A stretch of 41,632 nt of DNA. Source: a virus. Taxonomy: Duplodnaviria; Heunggongvirae; Uroviricota; Caudoviricetes. Both the position numbers and the translations under genes were made by a program. Positions 3,151 through 36,473 of the stretch are shown in pieces (positions within the stretch are counted from its first letter, which is position 1; each line of letters begins with the position of its first letter). Under the pieces are notes generated by a model. The model ran no database searches and had not been told where the DNA came from. It saw nothing but the letters and a program-made list of their open reading frames with translations. The DNA lies in IMG/VR virus record IMGVR_UViG_2579778554_000004; one strand, written 5' to 3'.

Positions 3151-5613
3151 TCAATTCCCTGTTAATTGCAAAACTTGCTCTTCCAGCTTTTTAACCCTGC
3201 GTCTCATCATCGCAGATTCCAGAATCAGAGCCTCTTCATAACGGATACCGTAACATTCACCAGCCTCGACGGCTTCGCGTACCAGAACCTTTGTCTGTAT
3301 AAGTGGGTAAACTCCTGCAGAATGCTCTTCTTCCGTCACATCCCTGTATTCTGCCGGGGTCTCATTCCACTTGTCATAACAGATAAATGCCAGTCGTGAC
3401 ACATCTATGCCTTCATTCTGAAATACACTGATAACATGCTGCGCAACTGCACCAAAGTGCCATCTTGCTCCGTCTTTACCTTTCACTTCGATCCTGTCAA
3501 GGTACTGGTATGAAACCCATTCCACTCTTTCCCATGCGTCCAGTATTTTCTCATCAATAACCTCTGGAGCAGTCTTGAAACGCGCATCGGACAGCACCGT
3601 AAACGCTGACTGGGTAAATCCCCCCGACCATGCACGACCAGCCAACCCAAGAGAATAAGTATTCGTTGTCGATGGTGTCATGGCTGAATCAGAAAACTGT
3701 ATATATTCTGAATTTCCAGTAGATATTCGAATATTTCCATTTATTAGCGACATAGTGCCTTTAGTATTATCACTATTGAATAATTTCAATTGCGAACTTA
3801 TACCGCCTCCCACAGCCAGAGATACATCGCCTTCAGCAAGCATTCTGAATTTATCTGCAGAAACAAGCGTCTGGTTAGCAAGGTTAAAATATTTAACCCA
3901 CCATTCAAAACGCCCTGACATAGTCCCAACGTACTGACCAAGCGCAGGGACGTGAACAACATTGCTATTTGTAGTGCCGTCTATACTGGAAATACCAGTC
4001 ACCGCTGATGCAGAACTCAGAATATTATTTCTGTCACCCGGATGTTTAATTTCAACAAAGTTCCTGATACACCCTTCCTCGAAGGTAACCACGCCGGAAG
4101 AACTATACATGGGGAATATTGACGCATAATTACTGCGTGCAGCATCTAAGAAACGAATGGTTGTAGATGTCTGCAGATCTCCTGATTCATTTTTCCCATC
4201 ACACCCAGTCATTAGAATATTACTGGCAATATTATTATTTCCCTGAACGGTGACTCCGTGCGCCTGCTTTGCGTCCGATTCAGAGTAATCAACCAGCACA
4301 TTCGAAATCAGGTTACCAGTCCCCTTGCCAACAACTACTGCGGCGTATTTTGGGTTGTTAGCCATTACACTGCTAATGATATTATTCGTTGGGGCAGTTT
4401 CCGTCTCAGTTCCATTGTAAACAACGTGCTGACACTCTTCACCAATAACATTGCTGACAATGTTATATTTTGCTGCTGTTTTAAGTTCCACTGCACCAAA
4501 CTGAGGATAATTTCTGGCTATCACACCATCAATTAGCGTATTTTGCGATGAATCAAAAAGCACACAACCTGCTTTTTTATTATTTGCGAACCCTAAATAC
4601 TCTCCTCTTATATCTCTAACAATGTAACCTGACGGAATACCATTATTCGGATAAGCGATCAAGCTAAATCCTGTTCCTCGCGTATTTGTAAATCTGATAT
4701 TTTTAACCGATACATCATGGCCACCTGAAAATGACACCTGGTGTCCCTGCACACTATCATCTGATTTATTTCCCATAATTGTTAGCGTACTAAGCATGCC
4801 ACCATCGGGCATGTTAAAAACCAGATGATTACCATCTCTGTCATACTGTTTTATCGTTCCCCCACCTGTTCCGTACAAGCCACAACGTGAAAGAGAAACT
4901 AAAGATGTATTGAATACCCCTTCCGGAACAAAAACACTGCTAAACGAATGTAATGATTTTGTAAAAGCCTCCTTGTTATCATTTAAGATTCCATTTTGAG
5001 CTCCAAAATCCTTAATGCTGACACCATCACGCATCTTATCCTGGAGTGTTCTGTATACCGCTCCAGAACCATACTGAATAAACCAACCAAAACCACCAAC
5101 AACCCCGGCGATTGCAGCATCGACATAATTACGCATTGAGCGATTATTTACAGCGTCCTGCTCAAGTGATGGATCGGCAAGGTTAGATATTCTGTTTTGC
5201 TTTGCATCGTAATATTTTGCAAGCAAAGATGGTTTCATCAATGCACGTCTGAACCACCCAAAACATCGCTGGATCAGCATCGTCAGGTAGTCAAATGCAT
5301 CCTCATGAACTTCGGGGAAAAATTTTCCCTGATTGCGAAGATCAGTCTCCTGCACCACATCAAGCACACGCTCTATCGTGATTCGCCAGCCAGCAGCAAG
5401 CGGCGACGGAAGAACCACTGCACCGCCACTATAAGTTCCCGCCCCTGTTACCGTATAACCAGCATCCAGCACTAGTTTTGTAACGTTACCGTTAAGGTCA
5501 GACACCTGAACAACCAGGTCGGATTTTTTGAAAATACGGAAGGTATACGGAAATGATGTCGTAACGCCGTTACCTGTGTATTCGTTGTGGTCAACTTCGG
5601 TTGAGACCGTCAT
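3151..5613 (-). CDS. Tailspike protein with C-terminal intramolecular chaperone (peptidase S74-like) domain
   Basis: 820 aa; conserved podovirus head-binding N-terminus; Gly/Asn/Ser-rich beta-helix-like centre; C-terminal SDARFK...WHFGAVAQHV chaperone motif. Confidence 0.9.
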   Translation of the reverse strand: MTVSTEVDHNEYTGNGVTTSFPYTFRIFKKSDLVVQVSDLNGNVTKLVLDAGYTVTGAGTYSGGAVVLPSPLAAGWRITIERVLDVVQETDLRNQGKFFPEVHEDAFDYLTMLIQRCFGWFRRALMKPSLLAKYYDAKQNRISNLADPSLEQDAVNNRSMRNYVDAAIAGVVGGFGWFIQYGSGAVYRTLQDKMRDGVSIKDFGAQNGILNDNKEAFTKSLHSFSSVFVPEGVFNTSLVSLSRCGLYGTGGGTIKQYDRDGNHLVFNMPDGGMLSTLTIMGNKSDDSVQGHQVSFSGGHDVSVKNIRFTNTRGTGFSLIAYPNNGIPSGYIVRDIRGEYLGFANNKKAGCVLFDSSQNTLIDGVIARNYPQFGAVELKTAAKYNIVSNVIGEECQHVVYNGTETETAPTNNIISSVMANNPKYAAVVVGKGTGNLISNVLVDYSESDAKQAHGVTVQGNNNIASNILMTGCDGKNESGDLQTSTTIRFLDAARSNYASIFPMYSSSGVVTFEEGCIRNFVEIKHPGDRNNILSSASAVTGISSIDGTTNSNVVHVPALGQYVGTMSGRFEWWVKYFNLANQTLVSADKFRMLAEGDVSLAVGGGISSQLKLFNSDNTKGTMSLINGNIRISTGNSEYIQFSDSAMTPSTTNTYSLGLAGRAWSGGFTQSAFTVLSDARFKTAPEVIDEKILDAWERVEWVSYQYLDRIEVKGKDGARWHFGAVAQHVISVFQNEGIDVSRLAFICYDKWNETPAEYRDVTEEEHSAGVYPLIQTKVLVREAVEAGECYGIRYEEALILESAMMRRRVKKLEEQVLQLTGN

Positions 5614-5717
5614 GTTAAATCTCCAGATAGTCGCAGCACCCGTTGCGCCGCATATCTGGTTATTCTATTACCCGAAAAACCATATATGGATAGAGAGACT
5701 GTGAATATGAATAGATA

Positions 5718-5732
5718 TTACCTTTCAGGTAA
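5718..5732. promoter_or_regulatory. Operator-like palindrome TTACC-N5-GGTAA (site 1 of 13)
   Basis: attacctttcaggtaat; intergenic, upstream of LexA box and the 5810 gene. Confidence 0.5.
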
Positions 5733-5769
5733 TTTTCAAAACGTGCTGGATAGCAAACAAATTATTTGC

Positions 5770-5789
5770 TACTGTATAAATATACAGTT
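5770..5789. promoter_or_regulatory. LexA (SOS) box
   Basis: TACTGTATAAATATACAGTT: CTGT-N8-ACAG matching the E. coli consensus at 18 of 20 positions; 6-20 nt upstream of the next start codon. Confidence 0.65.
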
Positions 5790-5809
5790 ATTGCATGGAG
5801 AAGATTAAG

Positions 5810-6067
5810 ATGCAGCAGTATCACTATCCACTGGAAGAGGGATTTACCGAAAGGATTCACACGCCGGGAGGCGTCAGGTCACTGGTGGAGGGATCGCACT
5901 TGATGAAATTACTCCGGGATCTCGATAAGGATGGATTTAATGTCGATGGTCCACTTGCCGAACTGACTGCACTGATTAACTACGTCACCAGCTCACAGAT
6001 GTCTATGCGGGATCTGCAAACACATCTCGACTATTGTGCCGAACAATTACGAAAACAAACCAGATAA
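5810..6067 (+). CDS. Small SOS-box-associated protein consisting only of the domain found at the C-termini of the two antirepressor-like proteins; candidate antirepressor
   Basis: GGAG RBS 9 nt upstream of ATG 5810 (alternative ATG 5795); alignable to the C-terminal ~75 aa of the 6385 and 8152 gene products. Confidence 0.6.
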   Translation: MQQYHYPLEEGFTERIHTPGGVRSLVEGSHLMKLLRDLDKDGFNVDGPLAELTALINYVTSSQMSMRDLQTHLDYCAEQLRKQTR

Positions 6068-6070
6068 GGT

Positions 6071-6099
6071 TTGTAATTACCAAGTGGAGTGCTTATATT
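6071..6099 (+). promoter_or_regulatory. Sigma70-like promoter (TTGTAA-17-TATATT) abutting an operator
   Basis: -35 6071-6076, -10 6094-6099, operator palindrome 6099-6113 immediately downstream. Confidence 0.45.
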
Positions 6100-6384
6100 T
6101 ACCTTTGCGGTAAATTTACACCGCACTCCTCTTGTGCCATAGTAATCGGGCACTGGCAAAATCCAGTGCCGGGATTGGTCTCCCGGATTACTAAGTGGCG
6201 CATACCACGCCAGACGTGGTTTTTTTATGCGTATAGCACAGTCATGCCAGAATTATGGTGGGCTGAATGGGGGTCCGAAAGGACGCCGGTACCACTTAGG
6301 CCGGTAAGACCAACTCCGTTCAGTTCACCACCATCTGATTGGTCTCAGCGGTGGTGATGTAATTCGCTAAGTGGAGACGCCATC
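6099..6384 (+). repeat. Left copy of duplicated ~285-nt structured leader (operator, hairpins, intrinsic terminator, pre-RBS hairpin) upstream of the antA-like gene
   Basis: Reverse-complement match to 8848-9131 with compensatory substitutions in stems; begins with TTACCTTTGCGGTAA. Confidence 0.75.
6204..6226 (+). terminator. Intrinsic terminator or attenuator inside the leader
   Basis: ACCACG-ccaga-CGTGGT followed by TTTTTT; alternative pairing GGCG/CGCC upstream could compete. Confidence 0.55.
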
Positions 6385-7041
6385 ATGAACGCTCAACTCA
6401 TCCCCGTATTCAACGGCACTATCGCCAACGAAACCACTCTTCTCGTTAATGCTCGCGATTTACATACTTTTCTTGGGGTAGGTAAACGCTTTGCATCGTG
6501 GATTACAGAACGCATTGCTGAATATGGTTTCGTTGAAAATCAGGACTATATTTTGGTTTCCCCAAATCGGGAAATCAAAGGTCGAGGAGGCGATCGCCGT
6601 AGCAAAGACTATCACCTCACCCTCGATACGGCCAAAGAAACTGCGATGGTCGAGCGCAACGAAAAAGGCCGCCAGATACGCCGATACTTCATTGAATGCG
6701 AGAAACGTTTAAGACAACAAGAAACAAAGGTGGAGAAGGTCTTGTCAGGCTTCATGCCCGCCATTATGGAGGCGATCAAGCTGGAAGACAAAAAAGAATA
6801 CAGTGCCCCACTGAAGCCCGGCTACCGCAGTCTGATTCACTCGCCGTCGGGTGTTCTCGGCCTGACGGAGAACTCACTGCTGATGAATCTGCTGAACCAG
6901 TTACAGGAAGACGGGCACGACGTATCGGGCGCGGCGGCGGAGCTGACCACCATGTTCTGCTACATCGTCGGTGTGAGCAAATGCCTGCGTGATATCCAGA
7001 CCCACGCGGAGTACATCAACGACAAGGCAGGGTTCTTCTGA
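6385..7041 (+). CDS. Antirepressor-like protein, AntA/AntB-type N-terminal domain plus shared C-terminal domain
   Basis: ARDLHTFLGVGKRFASWITERIAEYGFVENQDY pattern; C-terminal ~85 aa near-identical to C-terminus of the 8152-8847 product. Confidence 0.8.
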   Translation: MNAQLIPVFNGTIANETTLLVNARDLHTFLGVGKRFASWITERIAEYGFVENQDYILVSPNREIKGRGGDRRSKDYHLTLDTAKETAMVERNEKGRQIRRYFIECEKRLRQQETKVEKVLSGFMPAIMEAIKLEDKKEYSAPLKPGYRSLIHSPSGVLGLTENSLLMNLLNQLQEDGHDVSGAAAELTTMFCYIVGVSKCLRDIQTHAEYINDKAGFF

Positions 7042-7060
7042 CGGCGGCGGCACAGGGACG
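6789..7060. repeat. Inner inverted repeat, left copy (3' end of antA-like gene)
   Basis: Near-identical by eye to reverse complement of 8132-8394. Confidence 0.8.
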
Positions 7061-7076
7061 TGCAAAACGAAACTAT

Positions 7077-7090
7077 CGTGACATGTCACA
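7077..7090. promoter_or_regulatory. Conserved 14-mer CGTGACATGTCACA (copy 1 of 3)
   Basis: Identical 14-mer also at 27323-27336 and 29541-29554; contains palindrome GTGACATGTCAC. Confidence 0.4.
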
Positions 7091-7114
7091 GGCCGCTTTC
7101 GCGGCCTTGTTTTT
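7091..7114 (+). terminator. Intrinsic terminator after antA-like gene
   Basis: GGCCGC-tttc-GCGGCC followed by TTGTTTTT. Confidence 0.6.
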
Positions 7115-7345
7115 AACGAATGCCACCGCCGCCTGGGCGGGAATCCGCAGAACGCCCACCGCAGCGGGAGCCGTCAGCGGCAGTATCGCTGTCGTGCTGA
7201 CAACGACCGGCAAAGGCCTGAGTTGAAGCTACCAGAGACAACAAAACGAACAGTGCAGCAAATGCTTTTTTCATTGTGAAATTTCCATCTATAAGCCACC
7301 TCAATGTGGCGTCAATGAGTGTAGCACTGACTTTTGTTTCGTCCA

Positions 7346-7368
7346 CAAAAAAGCCCGCGCTGCGGGCT
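7346..7368 (-). terminator. Intrinsic terminator for the 210-aa gene
   Basis: Hairpin GCCCG-cgctg-CGGGC immediately after stop at 7373, followed on minus strand by U-run (A-tract 7346-7351 on plus). Confidence 0.65.
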
Positions 7369-7372
7369 TCTA

Positions 7373-8005
7373 TTAATGCAGTTTATCTTTGCTTATAACC
7401 AGTAGTCTGTGGGTATGCACATCTTTATCACTGCCCCAACAGAAATCAGCCCACTGGCTATAGAAATCATCCCATGATGTCATGAAGCTAAGAGGTCTAT
7501 CTTCTTCAGAGCCATCTGAAACGTATACATTATATCCTGGGGTGTTTATAGCCCAAGAAATCATTCTTTCCCAGAATCTTCTCCCATCGATTGTTTGTTG
7601 CTCATCAGATACAACGATCGCATATTGCTCTAGGAAGAACTGAAAAAAAATCTGAGGCAAACCATGAACAGCACGGTCATGAATAACATTAGGCGTACGC
7701 CATACCATGATCTGCGTACATGTTCTTTTGGCTTCGACGATATCTTCCCGAAAGATTAACTTAACCGCATACACCGTTTCTGGAGTATCGCTGGTAGTAA
7801 TCATTCTGTAATGATCGCCATTACAAGATTTTACAAGGCGATAACCATAAGGTGTTGTGAATCCCGGAAGAACGAAATCAACCACACCTTTCGCTAAGTA
7901 GCTTTCGGTGTGACTAGTGTTCTTCTCAGACATGTTCAGTTTTCTATCGAAATCTGCTTCTGGGATAATGTATGGCATCGCTTTTCTTGTTGTATTTGTT
8001 CTCAT
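7373..8005 (-). CDS. Hypothetical 210-aa cytoplasmic protein, orphan accessory gene (no family recognised)
   Basis: Strong SD GGGAGG before ATG; own operator-bearing upstream region and own terminator; AT-richer than flanks by eye. Confidence 0.75.
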   Translation of the reverse strand: MRTNTTRKAMPYIIPEADFDRKLNMSEKNTSHTESYLAKGVVDFVLPGFTTPYGYRLVKSCNGDHYRMITTSDTPETVYAVKLIFREDIVEAKRTCTQIMVWRTPNVIHDRAVHGLPQIFFQFFLEQYAIVVSDEQQTIDGRRFWERMISWAINTPGYNVYVSDGSEEDRPLSFMTSWDDFYSQWADFCWGSDKDVHTHRLLVISKDKLH

Positions 8006-8064
8006 TTCGTCCTCCCATGTTTGGCTACAGGACGCGTTTTGAAGGGAAGATTAAAAATGCTTTC

Positions 8065-8079
8065 TTACCCTTGAGGTAA
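8065..8079. promoter_or_regulatory. Operator-like palindrome TTACC-N5-GGTAA (site 3)
   Basis: ttacccttgaggtaa, about 60 bp upstream of the 210-aa gene start. Confidence 0.5.
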
Positions 8080-8131
8080 TAGTACGCTATTCACCCCCAG
8101 TCTGCAATCTGTACAGAATTATTTAAAGGCA

Positions 8132-8394
8132 CATCCCTGTGCCGCCGCCCGTCAGAAGAACCCTGCCTTGTCGTTGATGTACTCCGCGTGCGTCTGGATA
8201 TCACGCAGGCATTTGCTCACACCGACGATGTAGCAGAACATGGTGGTCAGTTCCGCCGCCGCGCCCGATACGTCGTGCCCGTCTTCCTGTAACTGGTTCA
8301 GCAGATTCATCAGCAGTGAGTTCTCCGTCAGGCCGAGAACACCCGACGGCGAATGAATCAGGCTGCGGTAGCCGGGCTTCAGCGGGGCACTGTA
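8132..8394. repeat. Inner inverted repeat, right copy (3' end of bro-like gene)
   Basis: Reverse complement matches 6789-7060 with only a few mismatches. Confidence 0.8.
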
Positions 8395-8847
8395 GGTTTT
8401 GTTCTCTATCTTCATCGCCTGCATTACTGCTGACGCCGTGGCGTTGGCTACCTGGTCGGCAACCATCTTTATGCGTTCTTCCTGCGGGAGCGAGTTTTTA
8501 ATGTAACTTCCGGTGCGGCGGATCTGAGGAAGAACCTCACCTGTAACCCATTTACGAAAGCGGTATGGGATAGTGCCTGGTGTCACCGCATCGCGGCAGC
8601 GGAGGATCAGTGTGTAGAGGCCTGACTCGGAGATAATGATCGATTCTTGCTCACCGCCAGGGGTGTCGGTTGAAGCGACGCCCTTCTCATCATCATCAAG
8701 TTTTCGAACAGCATCTCGATGGTTTGCTATGCCTATAGCCCGACAAACATCTGAAGCGATAAACCATGGCTCACCATTAATGACGATTACCCGTATATCG
8801 GCTTGAGATTCGAAAGAAAAAATGGACGTGCTTTTTGTAGCTGTCAT
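8152..8847 (-). CDS. Antirepressor-like protein, Bro-N/P22-Ant-type N-terminal domain plus shared C-terminal domain
   Basis: N-terminus IRVIVINGEPWFIASDVCRAIG typical of Bro-N/Ant; C-terminus identical to antA-like C-terminus. Confidence 0.8.
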   Translation of the reverse strand: MTATKSTSIFSFESQADIRVIVINGEPWFIASDVCRAIGIANHRDAVRKLDDDEKGVASTDTPGGEQESIIISESGLYTLILRCRDAVTPGTIPYRFRKWVTGEVLPQIRRTGSYIKNSLPQEERIKMVADQVANATASAVMQAMKIENKTYSAPLKPGYRSLIHSPSGVLGLTENSLLMNLLNQLQEDGHDVSGAAAELTTMFCYIVGVSKCLRDIQTHAEYINDKAGFF

Positions 8848-9131
8848 AGTGGTTACCTTTTAGTCTGGTTAATCACCACTACCGACGCCAATCGGTTGGT
8901 GGTGAACTGTGCAGGGTTGGCGTAACCGGCTAAAAGGACCCGGCGCACCTTTCGGTGCCCCCACACAGCCCACCATAATACGAATGTGGCCGTGCTATAC
9001 GCATAAAAAAACCGCTTGCGCGGTGAATGCGCCTTTTAGTAATCCGGGACGCCAATCCCGGCACTGGATTTTGCCAGTGCCCGATTACTATGGCACAAGA
9101 GGAGTGCGGTGTAAATTTACCGCAAAGGTAA
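8848..9131 (-). repeat. Right copy of duplicated structured leader, upstream of the bro-like gene
   Basis: Reverse complement of 6099-6384; operator TTACCGCAAAGGTAA at 9117-9131; terminator hairpin ACCGC-ttgc-GCGGT plus A-run 9005-9024. Confidence 0.75.
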
Positions 9132-9278
9132 TGATAGACACAGACAAACATTAAAATCAACCATATTTGGTTAATGTGTGTAAAAGAGCCAGCAGCGAGA
9201 AATTGTGCCGCGACGTAAAATAACGAGCATCTGCTGGCTTACAACCAGCGATGTTTCAAATTTGTCACTACTATCAAC

Positions 9279-9626
9279 GTGCCATTACACGGCGCAGAGC
9301 TTTATGTCGTCAATCACAACGGCGAACCGTACACCCCAATGAAACCTATCGTTGAAGGCATGGGTATGGTTTGGGCTGCTCAATTTGTTAAATTAAAACA
9401 GAGATTTGTCAAAGGTATTTCGGAAATCGAAATACCTTCTGCTGGCGGTAAACAGTTAATGATATGCCTTGCCTTTCGTAAGTTTGCGGCTTGGCTTTCA
9501 AGCATTCAGCCAAACAAAGTCTGCCCTGTAATCCGCGAAAGTATTGAAACATCAACCGTATCGATATCGACACGGTTGATTATGACGGTAACTTATTTCC
9601 GTGTGTACTATTTCTCCCGCCACTAA
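9279..9626 (+). CDS. Hypothetical protein, possibly a truncated antirepressor-like N-terminal domain
   Basis: 115-aa ORF; C-terminal 20 aa look like out-of-frame sequence; family assignment uncertain. Confidence 0.4.
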   Translation: MPLHGAELYVVNHNGEPYTPMKPIVEGMGMVWAAQFVKLKQRFVKGISEIEIPSAGGKQLMICLAFRKFAAWLSSIQPNKVCPVIRESIETSTVSISTRLIMTVTYFRVYYFSRH

Positions 9627-26621: not shown

Positions 26622-26698
26622 GTGGCATTAGCTCAGTTGGACAGAGCAACCGCCTTCTAAGCGGTTGGTCGCAGGTTCGAATCCTGCATGCCACGCCA
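26622..26698 (+). tRNA. tRNA-Arg, anticodon UCU (reads AGA), CCA encoded
   Basis: Cloverleaf by hand: acceptor GTGGCAT/ATGCCAC, D-arm GCTC..GAGC, anticodon stem ACCGC/GCGGT with loop CTTCTAA, T-arm GCAGG-TTCGAAT-CCTGC, discriminator G plus CCA. Confidence 0.9.
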
Positions 26699-35888: not shown

Positions 35889-36473
35889 ATGAAAAGTATC
35901 CAGGACGTCCGCAGGCAAAATCTCAACGACTTGATCGACCGTGAATTCAATGGTGTTCAGACGCGGATGGCAGAAAAACTTGGAACTCAGGCAAATCTGG
36001 TAAACCGCTGGGCTCTTGGCAAGAAGGTTATCGGCGACCAGGTTGCGCGAAAAATTGAAGCTGCCGCCAATAAACCACGTAACTGGCTTGATATCGATCG
36101 CTCGCTTTCTCAGGAAGGTTTTCAGCCTGTCGGCCCAAGCGACATTGGTCAGCTGGCGGCTCACAACCTGGAACGCTGGATGAGCGAAAGCCGCGACCTT
36201 TCAACTCAGGGAAAACTTCACCGCGCATCCGGCGTCGCCCAGGTGACAATCAGCCGCCTGTTAAACAATGAGGTCAGTGTTTCCATTTCCACCCTGGAGA
36301 ATGTTGCATCAGCATTCGGGCGTCACGGCTATGAATTACTGATTCACCCGCACGACCCTGCGACCATCAACTATGACCGCTCGCGCTACGCATTGTTACC
36401 CGAAACCGAGAAAGCAAAGATCGAAAGTTACATTGAATTTGTCATCAACCAGAACGAAAAAAACAAACAATAA
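35889..36473 (+). CDS. Prophage repressor (CI-like), tandem HTH domains, no autocleavage domain
   Basis: Two XRE-type HTH regions; no Ser-Lys peptidase motif seen; divergent from Cro-like gene. Confidence 0.75.
   Translation: MKSIQDVRRQNLNDLIDREFNGVQTRMAEKLGTQANLVNRWALGKKVIGDQVARKIEAAANKPRNWLDIDRSLSQEGFQPVGPSDIGQLAAHNLERWMSESRDLSTQGKLHRASGVAQVTISRLLNNEVSVSISTLENVASAFGRHGYELLIHPHDPATINYDRSRYALLPETEKAKIESYIEFVINQNEKNKQ

Follow-up and report, generated by a model that had tools for sequence, protein, structure and literature searches.

What are the two long, similar leaders that precede a pair of antirepressor-like genes in an Escherichia coli prophage, and how might they control those genes? 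The genes lie in viral record IMGVR_UViG_2579778554_000004, a stretch of 41,632 nucleotides referred to here as the window, and its host element is an epsilon15/phiV10-like (Uetakevirus) E. coli prophage. No fewer than 15 complete E. coli chromosomes carry the 3.8 kb segment containing both genes (5600-9400) with 100% identity, strains EcPF40 and MCJCHV-1 being examples of carriers; 31 of 5426 genomes have 80% or more of it, and the phages phiV10, TL-2011b, phiv142-3 and vB_EcoP_ZX5 match portions of it. We propose that each leader is, very probably, a complete antisense-RNA control cassette for the antirepressor gene behind it, of the type described at immI of phage P1 and, equivalently, at isrK of the Salmonella prophage Gifsy-1.

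Several patterns emerge from comparison of the two leaders. First, the leaders at 6099-6384 (plus strand, copy A) and 9131-8848 (minus strand, copy B) are true homologues, as the initial annotation proposed, with 86% mean column identity over 344 alignment columns, and the pair is also recovered as inverted repeats I2-I4 in a repeat search of the window. Copy A lies 5′ of the AntA-type gene and copy B lies 5′ of the Bro-N-type antirepressor gene. Secondly, the elements reported in that annotation are all present, including the TTACC-N5-GGTAA palindromes (6099-6113 and 9117-9131), the terminator-like hairpins ACCACG..CGTGGT (6204-6220) and ACCGC..GCGGT (9024-9011), each followed by a run of seven T residues, the hairpins GTCC-GAAA-GGAC and GCACC-GAAA-GGTGC, and a CACCACC..GGTGGTG hairpin just before the ribosome-binding site (the pre-RBS hairpin). 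Thirdly, the folds are unusually stable from the predicted transcription start to the start codon, with z scores of -4.78 (A) and -4.83 (B) and none of 200 shuffled sequences folding as well as the real leader for either copy. The view of the initial annotation that the leaders are non-coding and under selection for RNA structure is correct.

The suggestion that the leaders belong to no known RNA family proved to be wrong. In the proposed covariance-model comparison with Rfam, both copies match two known families above their gathering scores, namely isrK (RF01394, gathering score 50 bits) and C4 antisense RNA (RF01695, 45 bits). The isrK matches score 67.7 bits at 6150-6226 (+) in copy A and 77.9 bits at 9080-9005 (-) in copy B, each covering model positions 1-77 of 77; the C4 matches score 61.2 bits at 6251-6335 (+) and 77.7 bits at 8980-8895 (-), each covering positions 1-87 of 87. 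A third model, c4-a1b1 (RF03163, 'a1, b1 targets of C4 antisense RNA', gathering score 46.7 bits), matches at 6137-6189 (39.9 bits, E 8e-8) and 9093-9041 (45.1 bits, E 2e-9), on the same bases as the 5′ part of the isrK matches, and a permissive Rfam scan of 5600-9400 gave no families beyond these three. The isrK model runs from a pair of 5′ hairpins through a linker to a terminator hairpin and its U-run. Of the elements noted in the initial annotation, the terminator is the 3′ end of the IsrK-like RNA and the GAAA hairpin is C4 hairpin 1, while the a2 target described below is displayed by the pre-RBS hairpin. The leaders are therefore unannotated instances of a known C4/IsrK antirepressor control cassette, and the false lead of a new RNA class is removed. 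RefSeq and the phiV10-type phage records carry no RNA annotation over the leaders other than 'terminator', and a literature search found no description of C4 or isrK in Uetakevirus, phiV10 or epsilon15.

The leader of P1 (P1 48217-48422; 8218-8423 of locus L125) provides a useful reference, scoring 68.8 bits with C4, 51.0 with c4-a1b1 and 35.1 with isrK, the last being a weak match over the same bases as c4-a1b1; a terminator-like hairpin is also found in P1 between b1 and c4. Because both match the same P1 leader bases, isrK and c4-a1b1 are models of one and the same upstream module. We note that isrK lies outside Rfam clan CL00128, and that a 2025 review treats IsrK and c4 as separate items.

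The pairing sites expected of such a cassette are present in full in both copies. Each C4-like RNA contains two unpaired segments, a′ and b′, and for both of them exact complements (of 7 nt and 8 nt, respectively) exist at two sites, giving two targets upstream of C4 (a1 and b1) and two downstream (a2 and b2). In copy A (plus strand) the IsrK-like RNA (6150-6226) comprises hairpin 1, hairpin 2, b1 and the terminator, with a1 (TTGGTCT, 6175-6181) in the loop of hairpin 2 and b1 (CTAAGTGG, 6191-6198) in the linker. Within the C4-like RNA (6251-6335; predicted mature form of 76 nt at 6257-6332, with ends transferred from the P1 c4 annotation), b′ (CCACTTAG, 6292-6299) forms the hairpin-2 loop and a′ (AGACCAA, 6307-6313) lies in a single-stranded stretch. 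Further downstream, a2 (TTGGTCT, 6339-6345) occupies the loop of the pre-RBS hairpin (6326-6356, defined by folding and covariation), whose 5′ arm shares bases with the 3′ strand of the C4 closing stem, and b2 (CTAAGTGG, 6367-6374) overlaps the Shine-Dalgarno sequence GGAG (6373-6376), 11 nt before the ATG at 6385. Copy B (minus strand) has the same organization, with the IsrK-like RNA at 9005-9080, a1 (TTGGCGT, 9055-9049) in the hairpin-2 loop, b1 (CTAAAAGG, 9039-9032) in the linker, the C4-like RNA at 8895-8980 (predicted mature form of 77 nt at 8974-8898, ends again from P1), b′ (CCTTTTAG, 8937-8930) in the C4 hairpin-2 loop, a′ (ACGCCAA, 8923-8917) in the single-stranded stretch, a2 (TTGGCGT, 8891-8885) in the loop of a pre-RBS hairpin predicted by folding (8874-8904), and b2 (CTAAAAGG, 8863-8856) overlapping the Shine-Dalgarno sequence AAGG of the Bro-N gene, 9 nt before the ATG at 8847. 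In both copies the predicted mature C4 has its closing stem followed by ACCA.

The manner in which the copies differ is especially informative. From the operator through b1 (6099-6203) there are just four base differences, two in a1 (6179-6180) and two in b1 (6195-6196), and all four are mirrored in a′, b′, a2 and b2, such that the six sites change in a compensatory fashion. This covariation of the C4 loops with their four target sites is the most informative in the leaders and was overlooked in the initial annotation, although the stem covariation listed there is real. The specificity keys are TTGGTCT (a) and CTAAGTGG (b) for copy A, and TTGGCGT (a) and CTAAAAGG (b) for copy B, and the duplexes formed are predicted to have energies of -8.6 to -12.6 kcal/mol in cognate and -3.5 to -7.1 kcal/mol in cross pairings. 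Because all six sites differ compensatorily, the two cassettes are predicted not to cross-react, and with distinct keys each C4 should silence its own antirepressor only. There is a precedent in the heteroimmune pair P1 and P7, whose specificities differ by a few bases changed in concert, according to two later accounts that cite Citron and Schuster 1990 (PMC8198154, PMC12197685). The b target 8-mers have no occurrence outside the leaders in the 41.6-kb window. Additional trans targets of the two C4 RNAs within the prophage were also considered and rejected, as the a 7-mers found elsewhere are scattered in a chance-like manner and have no adjacent b.

The match between antisense and target is maintained far beyond this prophage. 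When viral contigs were scanned for a pattern of the conserved IsrK core, at least 115 distinct leaders were identified, and among the matches listed 113 of 115 contain, downstream of the 6-nt core of a1, both its exact reverse complement and a further copy in direct orientation. These leaders contain at least 13 different a cores and at least 40 different b′ loops; when a cores were compared with leaders other than their own, a complement was present in only 246 of 9186 cases, and b′ pairs with its own b1 and b2 with mean energies of -12.0 and -11.5 kcal/mol, compared to -5.1 and -5.9 kcal/mol for non-cognate combinations. In nearly all of the leaders b2 lies on the Shine-Dalgarno sequence of an antirepressor-like gene. 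The retention of this match across the 115 leaders supports an antisense mechanism.

Paired positions were also counted in an alignment of 48 sequences, with one representative per specificity type. The b1:b′ helix is paired in 84% of cells, compared to 37-45% in controls in which the partner columns were slid, and both partners have changed in all 8 of its pairs. For the C4 closing (outer) stem the figure is 98.7%, with both partners changed in 11 of 17 pairs; IsrK hairpin 1 reaches 100% (4/7) and the pre-RBS hairpin 95.8% in its main stem (4/7), while the slid controls for all helices range from 32 to 66%; the stem covariation noted between the two window copies is thus upheld in homologues. 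When counted on the MAFFT alignment, a′:a2 and b′:b2 are 76-93% and 38-43% paired, low values that result from misalignment of the loops and the variable-length spacer, and for these helices we therefore rely on the alignment-free tests.

An independent scan of one genome per species gave a similar picture: 74 of its matches were of sufficient length for the a′/a2 test, which held in 52. Nearly all of these are from gamma-proteobacteria, mostly Enterobacterales together with Aeromonas and a few others, and the test failed in almost all matches from unrelated phyla, which look like chance matches. The lone Salmonella match among the species-representative genomes (L182) is of another specificity type, TTTGCA / TCGGTGAT.

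The a and b types have also reassorted independently of each other. The loop GTCCTTTTAG is found with four different a cores, and the two types occur in at least 54 combinations (loci L004-L123 from viral contigs and L126-L202 from genomes). Five viral-contig loci have two cassettes with both types readable (L042, L051, L084, L087 and L179; a sixth two-cassette locus, L083, was left out of this count), and the co-resident cassettes differ in b in all five and also in a in three. With the window included, co-resident pairs differ in b in 6/6 and also in a in 4/6.

We propose that the cassettes act in the following manner. The prophage repressor would limit transcription at the TTACC-N5-GGTAA operator adjoining the promoter. 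The first ~77 nt of the transcript would constitute an IsrK-like RNA that carries a1 and b1 and ends at the intrinsic terminator, and most transcripts would end there. Those reading through would run into the tRNA-like C4 RNA of ~77 nt, which RNase P would excise, by homology to P1, exposing a′ and b′. Pairing of a′ with a2, and of b′ with b2 over the Shine-Dalgarno sequence, would then block antirepressor translation, while a1 and b1 would pair with the same a′ and b′ and compete with the mRNA for C4, thereby setting a threshold; this competition could take place within the unprocessed leader (in cis) or through the short terminated RNA (in trans). In the full-length minimum-energy folds of both copies a1:a′ and b1:b′ are paired in cis, an arrangement that resembles the silent 'structure A' of Gifsy-1, yet b2 is left free in them.

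An alternative is that a leader peptide opens the antirepressor start by translational coupling, in the style proposed for Gifsy-1, but we consider this unlikely. The orf45-like open reading frame (ORF) would start at a conserved AUG on the 5′ strand of the C4 stem, and in copy B it is 35 codons long (8976-8869) and ends 22 nt before the Bro-N ATG; moreover, in Gifsy-1 both orf45 start-codon mutations and a premature stop lowered activation (PMC4825925). However, in copy A a stop is encountered after three codons from the same AUG, and among the 115 leaders listed the ORF varies from 3 to >54 codons with its frame shifting over the same nucleotides, such that the peptide is not conserved. The literature likewise reports conservation of the nucleotide sequence and not of the amino-acid sequence, and the predicted RNase P cut, positioned from the homologous 5′ end that is annotated for P1 c4, falls inside that AUG.

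Slightly less likely still is a self-contained transcription attenuator or riboswitch, in which read-through of the terminator, governed by alternative folds or a ligand, would alone gate the antirepressor. Both copies do have a good intrinsic terminator between promoter and gene, the long-range a1:a′ and b1:b′ pairs enclose it in the full-length fold, and partial read-through of the IsrK terminator occurs in Gifsy-1 (PMC4825925). However, no conserved anti-terminator alternative was found in the leaders, no riboswitch family was matched in the Rfam scans of the window, and the strongest covariation is that of the C4 loops with a2 and the Shine-Dalgarno region, which lie downstream of the terminator and would be needless for an attenuator. 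Furthermore, the Gifsy-1 transcriptional fusions are active while translation is off (PMC4825925). The initial annotation was thus correct in describing a terminator-containing riboregulatory leader that gates the antirepressor, but the part of its proposal that invoked a self-contained attenuator does not stand, as the evidence indicates antisense pairing at the ribosome-binding site.

The weakest alternative, that the ORFs at 6034-6357 (+) and 9160-8930 (-) encode real proteins, an outcome that the initial annotation had named as contradicting its proposal, can be dismissed as wholly improbable, because although both ORFs exist mechanically and have a common N-terminal stretch, the frames are not conserved between the copies and diverge after an indel with translations that end differently, they begin upstream of the promoter-like sites and span two Rfam RNA matches as well as the operator and terminator, the pattern of substitution is one of compensation within RNA helices and not of synonymous change, and no coding sequence is annotated there in RefSeq, so that coding ALTERNATIVES was rejected.

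Several considerations weigh against the antisense cassette as we have described it. The c4-a1b1 matches fall just under the gathering score in both copies. Part of the 100% pairing of a1:a′ in the alignment is built in by the choice of the 48 representatives, for which possession of a′ was a criterion; the figures for a that are free of this bias are those from the viral-contig leaders (113/115) and from one genome per species (52/74). In Gifsy-1, activation is attributed by the authors to orf45 translation (PMC4825925), and the equivalent in copy A has just three codons. In addition, a mutation of a1 in cis raised expression in Gifsy-1 (PMC4825925), which does not fit a simple decoy role for a1. 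As neither leader of the window has an icd-like ORF, the P1 route, in which icd is blocked with Rho-dependent polarity on ant, is not literally applicable. Finally, the RNA ends, processing and regulation proposed for this prophage are predictions from sequence and homology.

The palindromes at the heads of the leaders are part of a larger set. TTACC-N5-GGTAA occurs as 11 exact copies in the window compared to 0.03 expected, at positions 5718, 6099, 8065, 9117, 26285, 29449, 33470, 33532, 35819, 36531 and 36593. Several are located on promoter-like sites, others precede an 85-aa ORF (5718) and a 210-aa ORF (8065), and three flank, on both sides, an HTH_3 gene (35889-36473) that is probably the prophage repressor; the set looks like a dispersed group of operators, as with the C1 operators of P1. 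In copy A the putative operator (6099-6113) abuts the -10 of an upstream promoter-like site on the plus strand, TTGTAA-17-TATATT (6071-6099, a consensus match only), and is followed by a second, TTTACA-17-CATAGT with a TG extension (6115-6143, +), with a predicted start near 6150 where the isrK match begins. In copy B the putative operator (9117-9131) lies similarly between TTGATT-18-TATCAT (9131-9160, -) and TTTACA-17-CATAGT with TG (9087-9115, -). The location of each palindrome between two promoter-like sites recalls Oc4 of P1 with its two tandem promoters.

The two antirepressor genes are themselves related at their 3′ ends. The AntA-type gene (6385-7041, +) encodes a 218-aa protein (Pfam AntA PF08346, 95.2 bits; PHROG anti-repressor Ant), and the Bro-N-type gene (8152-8847, -) encodes a 231-aa protein (Pfam Bro-N PF02498, 76.7 bits; PHROG anti-repressor); their C-terminal ~82 aa are nearly identical. 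An inverted repeat of 259 nt with 96% identity (6786-7044 / 8149-8407) covers the 3′ ends of both genes, and the proteins therefore have a common C-terminal domain and different N-terminal domains. The repeat extends 21 nt past the stop codons (6786-7063 / 8129-8407), and could permit inversion of the intervening 1.1-kb segment. Overexpression of a homologous Uetakevirus Bro-N antirepressor favoured the lytic cycle (PMC9782041). The 85-aa ORF (5810-6067; PHROG 450, 'hypothetical' in RefSeq) has 41% identity (E = 8e-17) to the shared C-terminal ~82 aa, and by this similarity it is a stand-alone homologue of the antirepressor C-terminal domain. Upstream of it are a LexA-box-like sequence, CTGTATAAATATACAG (5772-5787), and the palindrome at 5718-5732; phiV10, TL-2011b and phiv142-3 show conservation of both the LexA-like box and the ORF, and this gene may be an SOS-controlled stand-alone antirepressor module.

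Other features are present in and around this region. Between the antirepressor genes is the 210-aa ORF (7373-8005, -; PHROG 1349) with its own palindrome at 8065; by position, its counterpart in TL-2011b is a gene annotated as a YafO-family toxin. Neither this ORF nor a 77-aa ORF (7113-7346) has a match in Pfam, and a 53-aa ORF (7113-7274, -) is assigned to PHROG 14503, a 'membrane associated protein' in the moron category. A strong terminator-like hairpin (7090-7107, +) directly follows the AntA-type gene. Adjoining leader B is a truncated P22_AR_N antirepressor gene (9279-9626; Pfam 90.2 bits), a RefSeq pseudogene without its C-terminus, which is the remnant of a third antirepressor. A tRNA gene (26622-26695; Rfam tRNA, 73.3 bits) is located elsewhere within the prophage.

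Taken together, we speculate that the 5.7-9.2 kb region is a three-channel anti-immunity hub, a reading that we offer as tentative. The effector domain (PHROG 450, ~82 aa) would be deployed as a stand-alone, SOS-controlled protein with a LexA box and as AntA-type and Bro-N-type fusions, each fusion being locked by its own non-cross-reacting C4/IsrK pair, and the a and b sites would act as two independent specificity digits in a combinatorial code. The survey supports such a code in that the specificity sites vary widely and reassort (at least 13 a-types, at least 40 b-types and at least 54 combinations), and the five fully scored co-resident pairs and that of the window all differ in at least one digit. 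If the reading is correct, the code would let several cassettes or prophages share a cell without cross-silencing. The survey also unites isrK and c4-a1b1 as descriptions of one cassette's upstream module, reveals the 'orf45' peptide to be non-conserved, and places the mutated sites of Gifsy-1, in copy B numbering, on the P1 a1 and a′ sites. A two-key prophage that also carries a putatively LexA-controlled copy of the effector would be a convenient natural system for testing the cross-reaction of RNA locks and the integration of induction signals.

Comparison with P1 immI reveals the same order of parts with nearly the same spacing. The P1 GenBank record lists the C1 operator Oc4, P2c4, P1c4, a1, b1, c4 (77 nt), a2, b2, icd and ant1/ant2. 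The distance between the starts of a1 and b1 is 14 nt in P1 and 16 nt in copy A, that between a2 and b2 is 29 nt and 28 nt, respectively, and the end of b2 is 11 nt from the start codon in both. In each system there is a repressor operator at tandem promoters (both putative in the window), a C4 that matches RF01695 with a′ and b′ complementary to a1/b1 and a2/b2, a b2 on the ribosome-binding site, and an antirepressor gene downstream. There are also clear departures. The window has no icd, and the Shine-Dalgarno sequence covered by b2 is that of the antirepressor gene itself, with no ORF between b2 and the ATG in either copy (gaps of 11 nt in A and 9 nt in B). The terminator between b1 and c4 is clearer in the window than in P1, with isrK scores of 68-78 compared to 35 bits; the window antirepressors, unlike those of P1, have AntA or Bro-N N-terminal domains; and, again unlike P1, two cassettes of different specificity reside in one genome, that of an integrated Uetakevirus rather than a plasmid prophage.

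In the P4 CI RNA system (seqA/seqB/seqC) and with the N15 CA RNA, a small RNA processed from the leader pairs with repeated targets on both of its sides, with the result that transcription of replication or anti-immunity genes stops prematurely. In the window, in contrast, the target directly covers the antirepressor ribosome-binding site. The analogy with P4 CI/seqA was raised merely as a possibility in the Gifsy-1 paper, in which Hershko-Shalev et al. called IsrK a structural homologue of seqA (PMC4825925).

Gifsy-1 is alike in having an IsrK with its own terminator, then a C4-like RNA, and then an antirepressor. There, the isrK promoter drives IsrK and a read-through RNA that includes the stable STnc1160 ('orf45') and anrP; the long RNA is translationally silent, and supply of the short IsrK in trans increases anrP translation by more than 100-fold (PMC4825925). 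The compensatory mutation pairs G28A/C162U and G31A/C159U restored the silent state and fold (PMC4825925). When this numbering is mapped onto copy B from its isrK start, rather than onto the Gifsy-1 sequence itself, G28 and G31 fall in a1 (U26-U27-G28-G29-C30-G31) and C159 and C162 fall in a′, which suggests that the helix tested in Gifsy-1 is the a1:a′ interaction. The systems differ in that Gifsy-1 has orf45, to which nothing in copy A is equivalent beyond an ORF of three codons; isrJ, a component of the Gifsy-1 locus, has no match in the Rfam scan of the window and none after the antirepressor genes, and the downstream effect of AntQ is specific to Gifsy-1.

A similar arrangement occurs in the APSE phages of Hamiltonella, temperate phages of the podovirus type in which c4 and isrK are found upstream of a Bro-N gene and a′/b′ match the region upstream of that gene; one cassette per genome is described, with no analysis of specificity types (bioRxiv 10.1101/2020.03.17.996009). 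The sar RNA of P22 immI also pairs at the ant start region and blocks antirepressor translation (PMC12197685), but unlike the window RNAs it is encoded on the opposite strand of ant, lacks both the C4 fold and the a/b repeats, and is unrelated to them in sequence. Relative to the textbook case, the window and its relatives add the presence in a single prophage of two cassettes with different keys, direct control of the antirepressor with no icd involved, an effector domain that also occurs as a putative SOS-controlled stand-alone gene, and a wide, reassorting repertoire of a and b types, all of which are useful refinements of a known system rather than surprises.

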